From positions 6,076,001-6,140,000 of the forward strand of contig OX597828.1 in NCBI GenBank assembly GCA_951406725.2: 64,000 nt of DNA. Reading direction: 5' to 3'. Made by a program: the position numbers and the translations under genes. The stretch's first letter is position 1. Every line of letters starts with the position of its first letter. This stretch comes from Octopus vulgaris. Lineage: Eukaryota. Shown piece after piece: positions 27,216-53,405 of the stretch. Under the pieces are notes generated by a model. That model had not been told where the DNA came from. It worked only from the letters and a program-made list of their open reading frames with translations, and ran no database searches.

Positions 27216-27476
27216 AAAATAGAATATAAATGCGCCTTTTTAAAGCCTAACGAGGCTAATGGGCCCGGTTTCCAGGTTACAATGGCGAATGTGTTCCCCA
27301 GCTGGACGGGACGCTAGTCCATCGCAGTGTTACTCATTTTGGCCAGCTGAGTGGACTGGAGCAACGTGAAATGAAGTGTTTTGCTCAAGAACACAACGCG
27401 TTGCCTGGTCTAGGAATCGGAACCACAATCTTACGATCCTGTTGCTGACACCCTAACCACTACGCCACGCGCCTCC
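27216..27476 (-). mobile_element. tRNA-derived SINE family C, full length with 16-bp TSD
   Basis: TSD ATTGTTGCAAGATTTA at 27200-27215 and 27477-27492; A box TGGCGTAGTGG, B box-like GGTTCCGATTCC; GTTCTTGAGCAAAACACTT and TGCGATGGACTAGCGTCCCGTCCAG internal motifs. Confidence 0.92.
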
Positions 27477-28029
27477 ATTGTTGCAAGATTTACATGTATA
27501 AATTAGTACAGTTATATAAAGAGCGAGACTAATATCTGTCCATTGGGTCTGTATTATTATTTTTTTTACCTGTGCATTATCACGACTGATGGCTTCAAAA
27601 AGTGTGCGATTGTGAAAGCCTTTCTACTCCAGTGAAACTTGTAACTTCTCCTTACAATATCATTTTAAGTCAAAAGTAAGAAAGCGGAAATAATTGTAAT
27701 TTCCAGAATTTCTCATGATCGTGAAATTGTCGAGTATCGAGGCAGGGTTCAGGAGAATACATTCGAAAATCGAGAGAAGGAAGAAAGCTTTTGCTATTCA
27801 GTGACAGCCATGTTTATTCCTTCACAAGTTTATTCTTTTTGGTGAAATCATTATATGTTATATATATATCACATAAGTATGTAATATTGAGTTATAACAC
27901 TTGAAAATTTATATATTCTTCAGTAGCTGGGGTTTTCTAGTATCGTAATCCTCATCATAATCATAATTTTCATAATCATCTTCATTGTCATCATCGTTGT
28001 CATTATACTACTACAAATAATAATAATTC

Positions 28030-29379: not shown

Positions 29380-29785
29380 CTCTCTCTTTACTTGTTTCAG
29401 TCATTTGACTGCGGCCATGCTGGAGCACCGCCTTTAGTTGAGCAAATCGACCCCAGGACTTATTCTTTGTAAGCCCAGTACTTATTCTATCGGTCTCTTT
29501 TGCCGAACCGCTAAGTGACGGGGACGTAAACACACCAGCATCGGTTGTCAAGCAATGCTAGGGGGACAAACACAGACACACAAACATATACACACACACA
29601 CTTATATATATAAATACATATATACGACAGGCTTCTTTCAGTTTCCGTCTACTAAATCCACTCACAAGGCATTGGTCGGCCCGGGGCTATAGTAGAAAAC
29701 ACTTGCCCAAGATGCCACGCAGTGGGACTGAACCCGGAACCATGTGGTTGGTTAGCAAGCTACTTACCACACAGCCACTCCTGCG
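29380..29785 (-). mobile_element. tRNA-derived SINE family B, full length (CORE-like CTTGGGCAAGT motif)
   Basis: Minus: CGCAGGAGTGGCTGTGTGGTAAG (A box), GGGTTCAGTCCC (B box), internal TA/TG tract, tail CAAATGACTGAAACAAGTAAAAGAG. Confidence 0.93.
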
Positions 29786-30253
29786 ACTGAGGAATTTTTT
29801 TTTTTTAAACAAGGATATGTTTCTGCAATATGTTGGTAACTTTCATGAAACCCTTTTGAAATGCCAGTGAAGATTCGGTGCCAGTTAATGACTAAAGGAA
29901 TTCTATCAGAACTTTTAGTTTGATTGTTAAAATTATGTGGGGAATTTTGACTTACCTTGCTTATTTTAGTTATGTCATTTGCGATTTTCTTTAATCGTGA
30001 TTCACAGTAACCGTGTTTAACATAACTGTGTACAAAAGCATTTGCATGTCTCCAGTAAAATTGTGACAGAGTTATTTTGCAATCCTATGTCAACCCACAT
30101 TTACCTTCACTGCCTCTTCGATCAATCACATTATATCATTCGGTGAAATCCGAATTCTCAGTTTTTGAGGGTAAAACGAATTTGTTCTAATAAAGAGGAA
30201 ATACTGGAAACATGCAAATATTTCTGCCAAATCTCCGCCTTAATTAATTCATT

Positions 30254-30255
<2 letters not shown>

Positions 30256-30319
<64 letters not shown>

Positions 30320-30393
30320 CAACAGCAACAATAATAATAATAATAGTATTAAACATAATAATGATAAAATAATAATAATAATAATAATAATAA

Positions 30394-30446
<53 letters not shown>
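30256..30446. repeat. (TAA)n array
   Basis: Direct observation. Confidence 0.95.
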
Positions 30447-45522: not shown

Positions 45523-45934
45523 AAGCGCGCTTTAACAGTGGACATAGATGAGTGGTTGAGAATTTTGCTTGTCATCAATGTGATTTCGGTTTAAATGACA
45601 AGGTACGCCTCAATGGACGAGTGCCTTCAACGAAAGCTTAGGGTTGAACAAAATAAAAAAATCCAAGCCAATGATTGTGGCACATGCATATGTTCGCGTC
45701 CGCTTTTCATTATGTCTAATACCTATATGTCCCAGCAATGCAGAGGTTCCACAAAGATATACATTGTCTTTATATTCTAAATGAATGAATGAATATTCTA
45801 CTATGAGCATCCCATGCATTGCTGCAGTCCTGAAGCAAGGGAGTATATATTTGCATATATAATATGCATACATTCAAATATGAGTGTCTGTGTAGATTAC
45901 ACATACTAGCCAATATATATATATATATATATAT

Positions 45935-46927
45935 GTACATACTTACATCTGTACGTATATACATATGCATATGTGGGAACAGGACGTCTGAGAATGTAAA
46001 CAACATAAAAACACGTAAACATGATTACCAAATACAAATATAAAGAATATGGACTTCTTTTTCCAACAACGAAAGAAACAAATGGAAAACAAGACAAGTA
46101 ACATAACGAAGGACCCTTCATCAGCTGTCGGCTGTTTTTCTAATTCGTATTTCGAGCAATTCAACGGCAAGACACGCCTTCGATAAAACAGTTGCTCTCA
46201 CAAAGCAAATTAAATAAAATTTGGGATTTTGCAGAGCGTCAAAAGTTTCACCAAAACAGGATAATAAAACAAAAAGGAGGGGTGCTAACCCTAAACGAAG
46301 TGAGGTGGCGAACGCAGAGAAACAAGCTTGGACAGACGACAAATAAGAATGGGTCTGATTCATCCAGCTACAACAGAAAAAAGAAAGAAACACAAGTTAG
46401 GAAAAGAAAGAAAGAAAGATAGCCGATGGTCACGTGGGAGCAACATGAGCAAAGGAGGAAGAGTGAGGAAGAGAGAGTGGGAGACAGAGAACTGTGAAGA
46501 GGAGAGAAAAAGATCTGGAGAAAGGATTAGAGGGAAAAACAAGAGGGGGAGAATCTGAGGTAAAAGAATAAGAAAAAGGAAGAGAGAAAACGAAAGAGTA
46601 CTAGGATAAAATAGAGTGATGCATCAGAATTATTAAGATAAAACTTACTTGGAAAAGGATGCCTAGCGTTTAATCATATAATAATATAAATAATATATAT
46701 ATGCATATATATACATATATATATCTACATACATCTATACGTATATACATATGCAGATGTGGGTACAGGACATTATGGAATGTAAACAACATAAAAAAAA
46801 AACATGAAATACGAAATACGAATACATGGAATATGAAACTTTTTTGCAACAACAAAAGAAACAAATGGAAAACAAGACAAGTAACATAACGAACGACCCT
46901 TCACCAGCTGTCGGCTGTTTTTCTAAT
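45935..46927 (-). mobile_element. Non-autonomous repeat family F with ~200-bp direct terminal repeats (pseudo-LTR or partial tandem, Penelope/retrozyme-like)
   Basis: 45935-46145 and 46725-46927 are direct repeats around a purine-rich middle; flanked by (TA)n; homologous to 51971-52290 and 52960-53405 on the other strand; no ORF. Confidence 0.75.
46113..46176 (-). ncRNA. Hammerhead ribozyme core with non-canonical strand order, copy 1
   Basis: CGTGTC|TTGCCGTTG-AATT-GCTC GAAA TACG-11 nt-CAGCCGACAG CTGATGA A GGGT; all three stems can pair (one mismatch and one bulge in stem I). Confidence 0.6.
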
Positions 46928-49900
46928 CTGTATATATGCATAAAAATATGCCACAGGACCTCCCACAATTAAACACAATATCTATGCATTGTTCAAGCCA
47001 AATCAGGTTACCTGTGAAGAAAACCAAGAAAATCAAACAATACCAAAGTAAGTGATCCCCACGATCTACGCATCCACAAATATAGTCCACTTTACAATAA
47101 TGGAAGGCAACCCAGAATAACGAGACTAGGATGTAAAAAATTCCCAATCGAGAATAATATATATATTCTCATCATCAGCTGACAAAACGGATATCACTAT
47201 GCTTGTGACACCTGTCCGATACAATTCAATCCGGTGGTGTCTTCAGCATTAAAAACATAAATGTCGCTTGGCAATCCACCAGATGGTTACTACAAGTAAC
47301 AGCATTATGTTAAACAAAAATAGTGATAATTTATAGCTAGAAAATAGTACTTTTGACAAAGACCTAATTCAGACAATACAACAAACATTGACAGCTAGAT
47401 ACGTTGTTCCTCACTCAACATCACATAACGATATATATGGATTCTTTTATGGAACTTTAGGCCTCGAAGAACGTTACATAAAGCTATAAATAATAGCATG
47501 TCAATAGTCGAGGGATAATTTGGTTGATGTGTCTCGAGAGCCAATCTTGAAAGAACAAACAAAAGAAAAAAGACAATCATTTCATGTCTCAAAAGTTTTT
47601 AAAATACTTATGACATCGAGAGTATATATAGTTATGTGTGTGTGTTTGTATGTGTGTGTGTATTGTCTGTGTCTGTGTGAGAGAGAGAGAGAGTGAGAAA
47701 GACAGACAGACAAATACAGAGACAGTGAGATAAGTGATGGAGTTACAATACAACACCCTCATACACTGTACCCCATTCACTTCTCTCTAGCTTTACACTT
47801 TCATTACCTTAGTGTGAGCGTATGCACATTTGGCTAGAAACAGGTTTGTATATTTAACAGTTATAATATATGAATAAGGTCTTGCACACGTCTGTACATA
47901 AATATATAGACATGGCATTCACTATATGAGCGTGTGTATGTGTGTACTTTGTGTCTTTGTGTGCGTGTATGCACGCGTGTGTGTGTGTGTGTTCGTGTTA
48001 CAATTATGTATATCGATGTTTTATCCAGTAAATATACTCGCGAACCACAGCCTGACACATTGATATGTTCACAATGACACATACATATGTGTAAGTTTGT
48101 GAATGAAGATATGCGCAATCACTGTTGCTACATGTATTTACATATATTGGTATAATGAATGAATATATATGTATATGTATGTGTCTGTGTGTGCGTGTAC
48201 ATTTGAACATATAGATATTTATATGCTTGTAGATGTATGTATATGTGTGTGTATATTTATGTATTTATGAATGCACTTATGTATGTTACGCATACATACA
48301 TATATACATAATACGCACAGAAATGCATGTTTACTTTAAAAGAAAGCTAAATCCACTGGATTGTCAGGAGAGTATTTAAATATAAAACAAATAGAATTTG
48401 AAAGTGGGTTACGTCTGAAAATCACTCGCTTCAACTAAATAATATTGATTTAGAAGCTTTTCATGGAATGATATTTGTAGTTGGCTTAATCCAATAAATA
48501 AACACGTCAGAAGAACAAGTATTTATTTCACAGTTTTGCTTTTTTGGCTTTTACTTATTTGACACAAAATCGTGGAAGAAAGAGAAAGCTCTATGATTGA
48601 TGAAAGCAGGAGCGAAAATCCGAACCAAAAAGCAGAAAAATATGTATACACAAGAAAGCGTTATATTAAATTTCGCTGGAGATATTTTTTTAGGAATCAA
48701 TATTAAACAGAGAATGAGAGACTGAAAGAGAGTATAAGAAAGATAGAGAGAGAGACTGAGAGAGATATAGCAAGTGAAGAGCGAGGAATGAAAAGAGAGA
48801 AAGGGAGAAGAAAGGCAGGAATAAATGCAGAAAGTTTGCGTAAGAAAGAAAATATGAAATGGTAAGTTCTTTGATAAGGGCGAAACTGAACCAGATTTCT
48901 GTAATGATATATTTTATTAACGCATCAATCAAATGTTTGGATCAAACTGGTTGAAGCCGATTTAATCAATGCTAGTTATATTACATTACTTCTAATATCG
49001 ATTCTATATTCTTGAAATCATCAATTCTGCTGCTGTGTATTACGATTGCGTAAAAAGTGAAAGCTGGTGCCCTGATACTGCAAAGCAAATAATCCAGATT
49101 CCATAATATATTTAAAAAGTAATTCCATGAAATACATATAGAGCTAAAATCAAATGCCTTGTTATTACTCGAATTGGTAGTGCATGAAATCTTCTCTTGA
49201 ATGCGACATTTCAGGATGTTGTCTGTGATATATGTTGCAGTGATTTAATCACAAAACCGCTTACTCTCTTTGTTTTCCGCTAAAGCTGGTGTTTATATGC
49301 CTCTTAATGATAATCGCTCATGTATACTACAAAAGGTCCGTGATTTTATGAACTAACATCGTCCGAATTATTTACTTTCGCTGAAATAAGGTAAATATAT
49401 CGGGGCTGCATATATCATAAGGATAGTCTCATTGGAGTTTTGCACATGTTCATTGCATCGAAGTGATCTATCGGTTGAAGCTACCCATTTCTTCATGATC
49501 ACACACGGGAGTTTGTATCAGCATAAATAGATGAATACATGCATCCTTGCATTCCAGGTTTTCGTTAAATTCGAAGACATTAGCCTATCTTTCTTTGATT
49601 TTCGAAGGACTCCTAGTATCTTATTCTATGTAATTTAATATATCTATGTTGATAGGCAATGTTCACTTCGGCATTGAGCATGTCGATATCTCTTATGCAG
49701 AGTGTACTAAGTTCATGGTATTTTTATTAAACAACTGGTAGTTTAAATACATTTTAGGTAAGCGTTATGTTCTCAAATATGGTGTAAACAGTTAGCTTGT
49801 ACTTTTCGCTGGAATCAATTTATACTAATCATGAAAGATCTTTTTTTCAAAATAACACTTATGACTAAGCTTTTATTCACAAGTGCTTCATTTTTAGCGC

Positions 49901-51622
49901 TAGTGTTGATCGCCAGCTACCAGTGCCTCTTCTCATTGGTTTATTTACTGTTTTGTTGTTATATGATGGACTAGAGGGCTTCAGAAATCAATTTAAAGAA
50001 ACGTTGGCATATATATGTTACATTTCAATCCACAATATATGCGCATAGATTTTATATTTTCAAGTATCTTCTTACATTGTTTTTTTTTATTTATTACGTT
50101 GGGTGTCGCATTTAATTCCATAGATTTTAGTTGCTAAAGATGTAGGTTGTGTTTAAATGTGTAGAAATATATTTCATTCGTATATATTTTAGAAAATTAT
50201 ATTTTGATGATGACTATTTGAGATATAATAATTCAGCATGTAATAGGTTATTGGTTTCCTCTTGCTTATAAGTTACATATAAACTATATAATGCCAACTG
50301 TGCCTAAGTACTGTGTGCCAGATTCATATACATTGACTATTCCATCTCATTTTACTGTTGTCGTATTATTTTCTATGCTTACATAATTTAGCATTGAAAC
50401 TCCTTGAGCTAAACACAAACTAAATTACAGACTCAGACCTCAAGCGTTTGCTTTTTAAAATTTTCGAATATCATCCGTTTTAGACGGATTACCTAAATCG
50501 TATGAGAGTACAAAGAAACTTTTCGCCTCTTCATGGCCAGTAAAGTCCTAAAGAAACAAATTTTCTTCAGCTGAATAATATAAAAATAATTTTCGCCATC
50601 TTGGTTTAGAGAAATTTAGGAATAACTGAACACTTTTTTAATTCTATGTTTATAATGATATAGGGATATCATATCTAAGTTAATAAGCCCCAGTATATTT
50701 CTAAGGATTATTTTCTTGACGAAAGCTCAATCAGAACATAGAATATTCTATTTAAATAATGTAGTGCATTCAGTCGATCGTTCAGAACTTTCATTACCTA
50801 ATCATACTTAACGAATGCTATATTGATTTTTTTGGATTTTTTTACTAGGAACTCCGGTCTTTCAAGTTAATGACTTTCATATCCTAAATATATTATCGCG
50901 TTGTAATTGATCGAGATTGAATCTATATTATTCGGGAGCCAACATCGATTTGTAACGTTGACTGCACCGACTTTTCATAACTTAGAAAACGTCGATTCAT
51001 ATTTCATAAGCATAAGATCCATATTTTGCAGAAATAGGTGTGGATCCAATTTAATCGAAACTAGTTCCATTCATATAGATATTAGTTTAATAGTGATAAA
51101 GAAGACAGATATTGCTTCATAGTATTTGATCTCAGTGAATTTATGAACAAACTGACTTATGTGATATTGAAATATTCCAAATTGCTACAGGAATAACTGT
51201 ATTTCATTTACTTTATTCTTCAAAACACCAGATTATGTTAAAACACAACTGACTATTCGATTATTTGCTGTTGGTTCGCTTGTTTTTGTCATTGATTTTT
51301 TTTAGGGGAAGGGTTATTGTCCTGTTCGCCTTTCGTTCTAGCTCCAATGTAAAGCTTTCCCATAAAATGAAAAAGCATAACAACAACCAGTAATTTAATG
51401 TCATTGATGTATATACAATGATTTATAGATTTCTGATTTCATAGCCCACTTTGAAACGCTAAAGAACAAAGTTCTATAATGATTTTAGAAAGCATAAATG
51501 TGTTTAATATCGGTTAACTATGTAAATAGAGAAGCATCCTACTTCCAAACATAGAAGGGCCAAAACAGCAGACACACACACAAACACACACGCACACAAA
51601 CACACACAAACACACGCACACG

Positions 51623-51710
<88 letters not shown>

Positions 51711-51711
51711 T

Positions 51712-51950
51712 GGAGGCGCGTGGCTTAGTGGTTAGTGTGTCAACACCATGATCGTAAGATTGGGGTTTCGATTCTTGGACCGGGCGACGCGTTGCGTTCT
51801 TGAGCAAGACACTTCATTTCACGTTGCTCCAGTCCACTCAGCTGGCGAAGATGAGTAACGCTGCGATGGACTGGCGTCCCGTCCAGTTGGGGGAACACAT
51901 GCGCTATAGAAACCGGGAAACCGGGCCCATGAACCTAGGGCGTATTTATT
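51712..51950 (+). mobile_element. SINE family C
   Basis: GGAGGCGCGTGGCTTAGTGGTTAG...GGTTTCGATTC...GCTCCAGTCCACTCAGCTGG; matches the 27216 copy. Confidence 0.9.
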
Positions 51951-51970
51951 ATATATATATATATATATAT

Positions 51971-52290
51971 ACCCCTCCGCAAAGAAATCTCAAATATTAT
52001 TTAATTTGCTTTTCGCGGGAAGAAATGTTTCATTAAAGTCATGTATCGCCTTGACCTTCGAAATGTGGAGTAGATGAAACAAAGGCGACTGAAGAAGGGG
52101 AATTTTTCTTGTATTGTATGTCCTGTAGTCTATTTTTCCGTTGTTTAAGAAAAATGTCCATTTACTTGGTTTTGTGTTTATGATTTCGTTTCTCATTGTG
52201 TTCGACGTTTTTTTTGTTTGGTGTCCTGTACCCATATATGCATGTATATATACATGTAGAGGTAGGTACGTACATATATGTATGTATATA
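51971..52290 (+). mobile_element. Family F copy (divergent)
   Basis: TTATTTAATTTGCTTT, CTGAAGAAGGG and TCCTGTACCCATATATGCAT are colinear with the reverse complement of 45935-46240. Confidence 0.75.
52040..52100 (+). ncRNA. Hammerhead ribozyme core with non-canonical strand order, copy 2
   Basis: CATGTA|TCGCCTTG-AC-CTTC GAAA TGTG-12 nt-CAAAGGCGA CTGAAGA A GGGG; stems pair despite a different sequence from copy 1. Confidence 0.6.
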
Positions 52291-52314
52291 TGCATATGTT
52301 TTATTTATTTATTA

Positions 52315-52385
<71 letters not shown>

Positions 52386-52959
52386 TACATATCAGGCAAA
52401 AATAAAAACACGAAAATGACGTTAAACTAGCAACCAGGGTGTAACACTGGAAAAAAGACTAATGTATCGAGCTTAAGCTCATCAATGGAATGTGAAAAGC
52501 TAAAAACCAGAATCATCTCTCAATTAAACGATATGGCCTGAAAAGGAAGAAGTTGGCTTAAATCATCTTTGCTAAATCGGGTACAATAACTTGGTTTATG
52601 TGTGTATGTGACCAAGCGTATGCTTATCTGAAGCTAGTGTGCGTGTATGTAGGGTTATGCATGGGGGCACGTTTTCTATGTGAAAACAAGTACGTGTGTG
52701 TTTGTATGAGGCAATGTGTACTTGTATACCCTCTATGTTTATGCTTGTGTATACGTGTGTTGAGTCGTGTGTATATGTGTGACAGGTTATCTGATGTATG
52801 TAAGCACTAAACGAGTGTCTGTATACGTTTGTGATATTAATTTTTGGTTGTGTGTGTGTATATCTTTTATTTATTTATAATCGAACGCCACGCAGCCTTC
52901 TCCACAGTAAGTTCTTATGTTTAATTATACTTTCTGCGACTGCACACAGTTTTCTATTT

Positions 52960-53405
52960 TTCTCTCTATCCCTCTATAATCCTCTTATTTTCCGTTTCTC
53001 CCCTTCATTCTTTGATGTCCTCTGTCTTTCTTCCACTCCCTACTATCTTTCGTTCCTTCTCCCTTCTACTCAATCCCCTTGTTTCTTTCCCTCATCATCG
53101 CTCTTGTCTACCTTCCCCTCTGCCTGTTTGCTCACACGTGACTACAGGCCATTTCTCACCTCTGTCAGTTTTGAACGCGACCCCTACCTAACTAGACGTC
53201 ATTTCTCTCGCCTCCGGACATTTTTTCTTCTACTATCTTCGTCTCTTCTTGTTATTCTATATCCTTTCAAAGTTTCTTCCAGGCGTTACCCATTACAATG
53301 AGTCTTGGCCCAACGGCCCTTAATGTTTGTCTTCGTCGATTGTTTTTTCTGTACGTCCACTCTGCTGCTGTTTGTTTGTTCGAAGCCCTAACTCTCCCCA
53401 AATTT
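52960..53405 (+). mobile_element. Family F-related pyrimidine-rich middle segment
   Basis: CTCACACGTGACTA and CCCAAATTTTA correspond to the reverse complement of 46215-46600. Confidence 0.5.

Follow-up and report, generated by a model that had tools for sequence, protein, structure and literature searches.

What fold is encoded by a repeated element of the Octopus vulgaris genome in which the conserved bases of a hammerhead ribozyme occur in permuted order, and could such an RNA cleave itself? Two copies of the element lie in the window (the whole 64,000-nt stretch of contig OX597828.1, assembly GCA_951406725.2, that was analysed), the DNA of which is AT-rich and rich in microsatellites. A first-pass annotation described copy 2 as a hammerhead core of the non-circularly permuted kind, kept by compensatory change in a repeat family, and this description is upheld, as are its letters and segments, stems I and III, the site and the predicted cut after A52045. 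The same annotation built stem II from CUUC and the GGGG that follows the core and filed the motif under the published S-G-C order; CUUC (52056-52059) is instead paired with 52019-52023 and GGGG closes an outer helix (P0). P0 and two further helices, P5 and Px, had been overlooked, hence the S-G-C assignment, which does not hold. The reading that we favour, with a probability of roughly 0.78, is that the RNA has a full hammerhead core in a fold opened between A9 and G10.1, is likely to cleave itself after A52045 and belongs to a probable non-autonomous Naiad-type repeat.

The motif of copy 2 and the tail of its element are made up as follows.

51972..52100 (+): whole six-helix hammerhead-like motif of copy 2, starting right after a (TA)n run
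51972..51976 (+): 5' strand of P0, 5/5 pairs with 52096-52100, the bases directly 3' of A9; pair probability 0.72-0.99
51977..52018 (+): P5 hairpin, outer pairs 51977-51980/52015-52018, four G-C/C-G; probability 0.91-0.92
52019..52023 (+): 5' strand of stem II, with G10.1 at 52019; partner 52055-52059
52026..52033 (+): 5' strand of Px, 8/8 pairs with 52074-52081; counterpart of the stem I-II interaction helix
52040..52045 (+): 5' strand of stem III (52040-52044) and the GUA site, predicted cut after A52045
52046..52052 (+): strand of stem I 3' of the site, 7/7 Watson-Crick pairs with 52082-52088
52055..52067 (+): 3' strand of stem II, GAAA (52060-52063) and 3' strand of stem III
52074..52100 (+): 3' strand of Px, strand of stem I, CUGAAGA (52089-52095) and 3' strand of P0
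52101..52375 (+): T-rich 3' tail of the element, with a (TA)n tract at its end

Read along the chain, the order is P0 5' strand, P5 hairpin, stem II 5' strand, Px 5' strand, stem III 5' strand, site, stem I, stem II 3' strand, GAAA, stem III 3' strand, Px 3' strand, stem I, CUGAnGA and P0 3' strand; the 12-nt spacer of copy 2 spans 52068-52079, and CUGAAGA is followed by one A and then GGGG. Both sets of core bases, CUGAnGA and GAAA, are present in copy 2, as is an NUH site with the U16.1-A15.1 pair (GUA in copy 2, GUC in copy 1), and in both copies stems I, II and III adjoin the core and G10.1-C11.1 is present. A9 has no covalent link to the stem II strand, the stem II partner lying upstream. 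P5 adjoins P0 at one end and G10.1 at the other, such that P0, P5 and stem II succeed one another with zero unpaired bases between them. The blocks run site, GAAA, CUGAnGA, as in type SGC, and an intact type-SGC block C (with the stem II strand 3' of CUGAnGA) is absent. Judged from its sequence, copy 2 has exactly the layout of type CSG, circularly permuted so that the chain ends fall within the catalytic core, and the predicted six-helix layout is that of a pseudoknotted hammerhead variant whose A9-G10.1 link is broken.

SGC and CSG hammerheads (Eckert et al. 2023, PMC10085705) have the core bases, the cyclic block order, a short link between stems I and II and a joining helix in common with the octopus motif. 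They differ in that CUGAnGA and the stem II strand are assumed to be contiguous, whereas here the two stand at opposite ends of the motif and are bridged by P0 and P5; the six-permutation scheme of that study likewise assumes an uninterrupted block C. In the parts of the paper covered, SGC and CSG are placed only in metatranscriptomes and metagenomes and in no genome of a known organism, with only two examples of CSG, both metagenomic, and its supplement contains no match for Octopus, Acropora or two Naiad motifs. Hammerheads bearing added helices or insertions in the core (Perreault 2011, PMC3088659; the PK hammerhead of PMC11300833) likewise tolerate additions around an intact core, but in the portions of these papers covered their chain ends are not inside the core, nor are the additions combined with the pseudoknotted order. 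The core-opened layout is undescribed in a literature search that left aside subscription papers, bioRxiv supplements and Weinberg 2015 (the last of which is cited in PMC13725137, in the part covered, as one of the papers on variants that have extra helices or are permuted in other ways), and does not appear in the covered parts of PMC6962438, PMC10162972, PMC13725137, PMC6765202, PMC12192606 and PMC6154101. The motif is best regarded as hammerhead-like, its apparent novelty being a chain opened within the core and combined with the pseudoknotted order.

The layout was scored with a six-helix descriptor for the order site-GAAA-CUGAnGA, which was devised after copies 1 and 2 were known. Copy 2 scores 83 with six helices; of 40 whole-window dinucleotide shuffles, 4 gave any six-helix parse, the best scoring 49. 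When the core of the first-pass annotation was kept fixed and only the flanks were shuffled, 0 of 2000 shuffles reached the copy 2 score for stem II, Px, P0 and P5, and 8 of 2000 reached that of copy 1, for which the descriptor parses five of the six helices. By both shuffles the motif of copy 2 exceeds chance (best 49 against 83; flank shuffles 0/2000). Folding of copy 2 with ViennaRNA without constraints forms P0, P5, Px and stem III, most pairs with probabilities of 0.7-0.99, with GGGG taken up in P0. The upstream stem II (52055-52059/52019-52023) has Watson-Crick pairs at four of five positions, the mismatch being at A52023. When the same logic was applied to ordinary phage hammerheads (64 cores in 126 loci, in a sample of about 3 of the 64 parts of the phage collection), no core was called opened, and the S-G-C pattern gave 12 loci in viral contigs, 0 of them with six helices. 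We regard it as very likely that the six-helix fold is real.

Copy 1, its surroundings and the sequence that follows copy 2 comprise these features.

46112..46240 (-): motif of copy 1, site GUC; stem II 6/6, Px 7/8, stem III 5/5, stem I 5/6, P0 5/6, P5 decayed
46253..46690 (-): non-coding 5' part of the copy 1 unit; GTAAGT at 46648
46700..46935 (-): partial unit upstream of copy 1; 203/235 bases match the 3' part of copy 1
47172..47241 (-): decayed motif of a different family; stem II 6/6 and Px 5/5 kept, GAAA and stems I and III decayed
52866..53346 (+): 5' part of the unit following copy 2; 291/419 aligned bases agree with the sequence upstream of copy 1

Identity between the two elements is 68% over 315 nt, and the differences recorded between them at first reading (GUA versus GUC, A versus U at core position 7, and A-U versus G-C in stem III) all hold. 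The stem I drawn for both is complete in copy 2 (7/7) and carries one mismatch in six pairs in copy 1. Pairs 3-5 of the upstream stem II show double changes between copy 1 and the copy 2 family, with the downstream AGGG identical. The 47.2-kb remnant and the metagenome families described below likewise have every pair of the upstream stem II, formed by other sequences. All six helices are intact in copy 2, which may still be functional; P5 has been lost from copy 1. An extra helix of copy 1 (46182-46177/46112-46107, 6/6) is weak in copy 2 and was left out of the model.

Copy 1 forms a partial tandem with a period of about 785 nt, (TA)n tracts flank the elements of both copies, and the 5' part that precedes copy 1 aligns to the one that follows copy 2 with a score of 193 against a shuffle maximum of 138. 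Within these diverged 5' parts a possible 5' splice donor, GTAAGT, occurs in both (46648 on the reverse strand, 52907 on the forward strand), as does the motif CACGTGAC (46436 and 53135). The start of the partial unit 46935-46700 (-) is some 18 nt 3' of the position that corresponds to the cut site; this single example could mark the 5' end of a template made by cleavage.

Contigs that match 281 nt of the copy 2 family number about 6000 each in runs X1 and X4, 2029 in X13 and 1063 in X20, which makes the family high-copy; that X20 is RNA is only a guess, and its contigs were excluded as expression evidence. In this comparison, which mostly lacks the 5' strand of P0, G replaces A52023 in 99-100% of depth in the three runs spanning the position, restoring the stem II pair. 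The proposed check of whether G-U pairs revert in the family is passed in part by stem III: C replaces 52064 U in 93-97% of depth in three of the four runs and in 44% in the remaining, thinly covered one, so that G-U becomes G-C; the other U-G stays. Positions 52041/52066 of the same stem alternate between A-U and G-C, and the site is GUC in 15-69% of depth in three of four runs. No variant of at least 8% touches the CUGAnGA and GAAA core bases in the four runs, an invariance that is modest evidence (p about 0.05). Stem I varies at 52082, 52083, 52085 and 52087, with no matching partner changes listed. A rise in depth 3' of the cut site was set aside as a signal, contig depth being unfit to rank parts and 5' truncation yielding an equal slope.

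Relatives were sought in metagenomes with a pattern that fixed only the site, GAAA and CUGAUGA, so that the core is set by the search and the outer helices are not used by it. At least 120 loci match, 59 of which fall in two related families from five assemblies; the other 61 of the 120 listed lie outside these families and were set aside as probable chance matches. Under the strict descriptor, 25 of the 120 listed loci have six helices with a score of at least 60, and the best non-family locus among those listed scores 48 with six helices. An alignment of 46 of the 59 family loci (13 were excluded for contig ends or indels) pairs the six helices in 91.9% of cells, compared with 26-45% in slid controls; Px pairs in 95.5% of cells and G10.1-C11.1 is G-C in 41 of the 46. 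Double changes occur in P0, Px and stem I, with one doubly changed cell each in stem II and P5, although these copies, from two families and five assemblies, represent only a handful of independent changes.

Both metagenome families are, by eye, nearly identical to Acropora Naiad consensuses. At one locus (L024) the C-terminus of a Naiad reverse transcriptase (RT), with an E value of 6e-20 to the full-length relative P0023, lies 325 nt upstream of the motif on the same strand, and at another (L050) an RT end is also found upstream. P0023 itself has an N-terminal GIY-YIG match (E 7e-4, below the Pfam cut-off) and, by eye, the CxC and DKA motifs named for Naiads in PMC8557442; its RT relatives give weak RVT_1 matches. 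Naiad protein scans of genome and viral contigs found no relatives.

The published Naiad consensuses (Craig et al. 2021, PMC8557442) were parsed by eye, over the 3' ends or CUGAnGA contexts of about 47 of the 54 records in the supplement, with CUGAnGA as the sole search term. Nine records (Naiad_Bfor, Amil, Aacu, Anas, Plae, EuTe, Obim, Ovul and Esco) show the six-helix layout with differing stem sequences, and these core-opened consensuses span ctenophores, corals, an acanthocephalan, a crustacean and cephalopods; in Bfor stem I has only 2 bp and P0 has two U-U beside the junction, in Ovul P0 is short, and Esco is degenerate. Six nematode records (Naiad-1/2/3_Nbra, Hcon, Hpol and Asuum) are by eye clean type CSG, with A9 linked to stem II. 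Asuum carries one extra base between A9 and G10.1. The remaining records show neither layout in the stretch covered, where motifs further upstream could be missed. Bivalve and hemichordate Naiad 3' ends have a different conserved motif in common and no hammerhead layout in that stretch. In the parts of PMC8557442 covered, no canonical hammerhead is reported in Naiads, 'HHR_half_core' is flagged in Naiad_Ovul and Naiad_Esco, and a fold is not proposed.

Is the window repeat itself a Naiad? Naiads (PMC8557442) and the window repeats are alike in having the motif near the 3' end, (TA)n insertion sites and partial tandems (the pseudo-LTR arrangement), all present here, and differ in that Naiads encode an ORF, which the window's element does not. 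The Naiad ORF (N-terminal GIY-YIG and C-terminal RT) has no tblastn match below E 0.8 in the window, copies 1 and 2 have no detectable similarity to the Naiad-like remnant at 47.2 kb, and four short motifs from the two copies are absent from the Naiad consensuses covered in the PMC8557442 supplement. Because of the layout, the (TA)n flanks and the partial tandems, we consider a Naiad origin of the copy 1/2 family likely, and its anatomy fits the reading of the window's ORF-less repeat as probably a non-autonomous Naiad-type Penelope-like element. By eye, the remnant at 47241-47172 (-) corresponds to the 3' end of the Naiad_Obim/Naiad_Ovul consensuses. Between this decayed octopus Naiad end and the partial tandem of copy 1, which is downstream of it and shares its strand, there are 240 nt, as if one element had inserted beside another.

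The type I and minimal hammerheads of canonical Penelope-like elements and non-LTR retrozymes (PMC4209133; bioRxiv 10.64898/2026.07.22.740005) likewise sit as ribozymes in terminal repeats or in non-autonomous tandem derivatives. According to the parts of these sources covered, they are of type I, often with a weak stem III that needs dimers, whereas the present motif is pseudoknotted and has full stems, and unlike them it could act as a monomer. Non-LTR retrozymes consist of tandem units each with a type I hammerhead; the window contains a partial tandem only, and its motif is not type I.

How might a core with an interrupted chain be held together? In hammerhead structures A9 pairs with G12, adjacent to G10.1-C11.1 (PMC11300833), and in the octopus motif P0 and P5 would stack end to end, with the nick in the stack setting A9 beside G10.1 in place of the covalent link, while Px would dock stems I and II. 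Self-cleavage after A52045 is expected by analogy with type-CSG RNAs, which are reported to cleave in vitro at 0.004-0.03 per min (PMC10085705), and we hold cleavage in active members to be highly probable. After the cut the products would still be held by four helices (P0, II, Px and III; about 22 bp), and re-joining would therefore be favoured. A unit cut from a tandem transcript might then circularise or be copied through the nick, and the cutting and circularising of tandem precursors is the role proposed for other Penelope-like hammerheads (PMC4209133). The genomic copies of the relatives run across the cut site, so template RNA would have been uncut, re-joined or copied across the nick. 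In 42 relatives that are not contig-limited, the 5' ends are scattered over distances of 7 to 383 nt from the site, on its upstream side, and do not cluster at P0; the start of copy 2 at P0 may therefore be chance.

A broader proposal, which we put only slightly ahead of its negation, is that Naiads are the missing animal home of pseudoknotted hammerheads. Nematodes would have CSG, and a core-opened form, the seventh permutation, would occur in ctenophores, corals, an acanthocephalan, a crustacean and cephalopods, with two stacked helices standing in for the A9-G10.1 bond; this RNA would cleave and, because its products stay paired, re-ligate tandem transcripts into circles that template retrotransposition. 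If true, this would overturn the assumption on which the list of six hammerhead permutations rests, give non-circular permutations a high-copy presence in named animal genomes and account for the Naiad 'half cores'. The pairing of CSG and core-opened forms within one tandem-forming clade would offer a natural model for the rewiring of an RNA fold. Hammerhead models of Rfam match nothing in the whole window at the gathering score and nothing in 45800-52400 at E<=10; descriptor and Rfam searches miss the layout, and animal ribozyme counts would therefore be too low.

The alternative that survives best, although we think it unlikely, is that the six-helix fold is under selection and non-catalytic, serving as an RT-bound 3'-end signal descended from a ribozyme. 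Copies that span the cut site are in keeping with such a signal, the broken A9-G10.1 link has no tested precedent in the portions of the literature covered, and Naiads are reported to thrive without canonical hammerheads (PMC8557442). Against this, GAAA, the NUH site, A15.1-U16.1 and G10.1-C11.1 are kept in the window copies and, by eye, in five animal groups, and nematode Naiads, in the records covered, have the intact-link CSG form in the same place.

An ordinary type-SGC hammerhead, in which GGGG after CUGAAGA forms stem II with one extra A, is in our judgement very improbable. The block order is indeed S-G-C, single-base insertions at the position after CUGAnGA have been reported (PMC4209133, as far as covered), and a downstream stem II of four pairs, two of them G-U, can be drawn in copies 1 and 2 with a duplex energy equal to that of the window's upstream one (-2.8 kcal/mol). 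The check for reversion of G-U pairs goes against this stem, since both stay in the family contigs, with no variant of at least 8% at 52056-52059 or 52096-52100; moreover, GGGG is used by P0, the upstream strand covaries, and the downstream strand pairs in only 28.3% of the 46 aligned Naiad-tail copies and cannot pair in the consensuses parsed by eye. The availability of both partners at similar energies in copies 1 and 2 could also be taken for an on/off switch between the upstream and downstream stem II, but the downstream option is absent from the metagenome families, so a switch is not general and the option may only reflect the G-rich strand of P0, which leaves this idea a shade less credible still. 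Chance pairing in a decayed repeat, for which one may point to a descriptor devised after the copies were known, several G-U pairs and the five of six helices of copy 1, is the least credible of all given the shuffle tests, the recovery of the layout in unrelated sequences by a search that used no outer helices, the score of only 48 with six helices for the best listed non-family metagenome locus and the 0/64 of the phage control.

The core-opened, probably self-cleaving hammerhead of a Naiad-type repeat is thus the reading that we retain, and a few observations stand beside it. Several type II hammerhead-like cores occur within about 2 kb in each of the phage contigs L183, L211, L215, L219 and L242. 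Elsewhere in the window, short ORF pieces at 29764-30400 (-) resemble the thumb region of a canonical Penelope-like RT. A SINE-like repeat is present in two copies that are 89% identical (51711-51907 and 27282-27477), the first of which lies just upstream of copy 2, beyond the (TA)n run.
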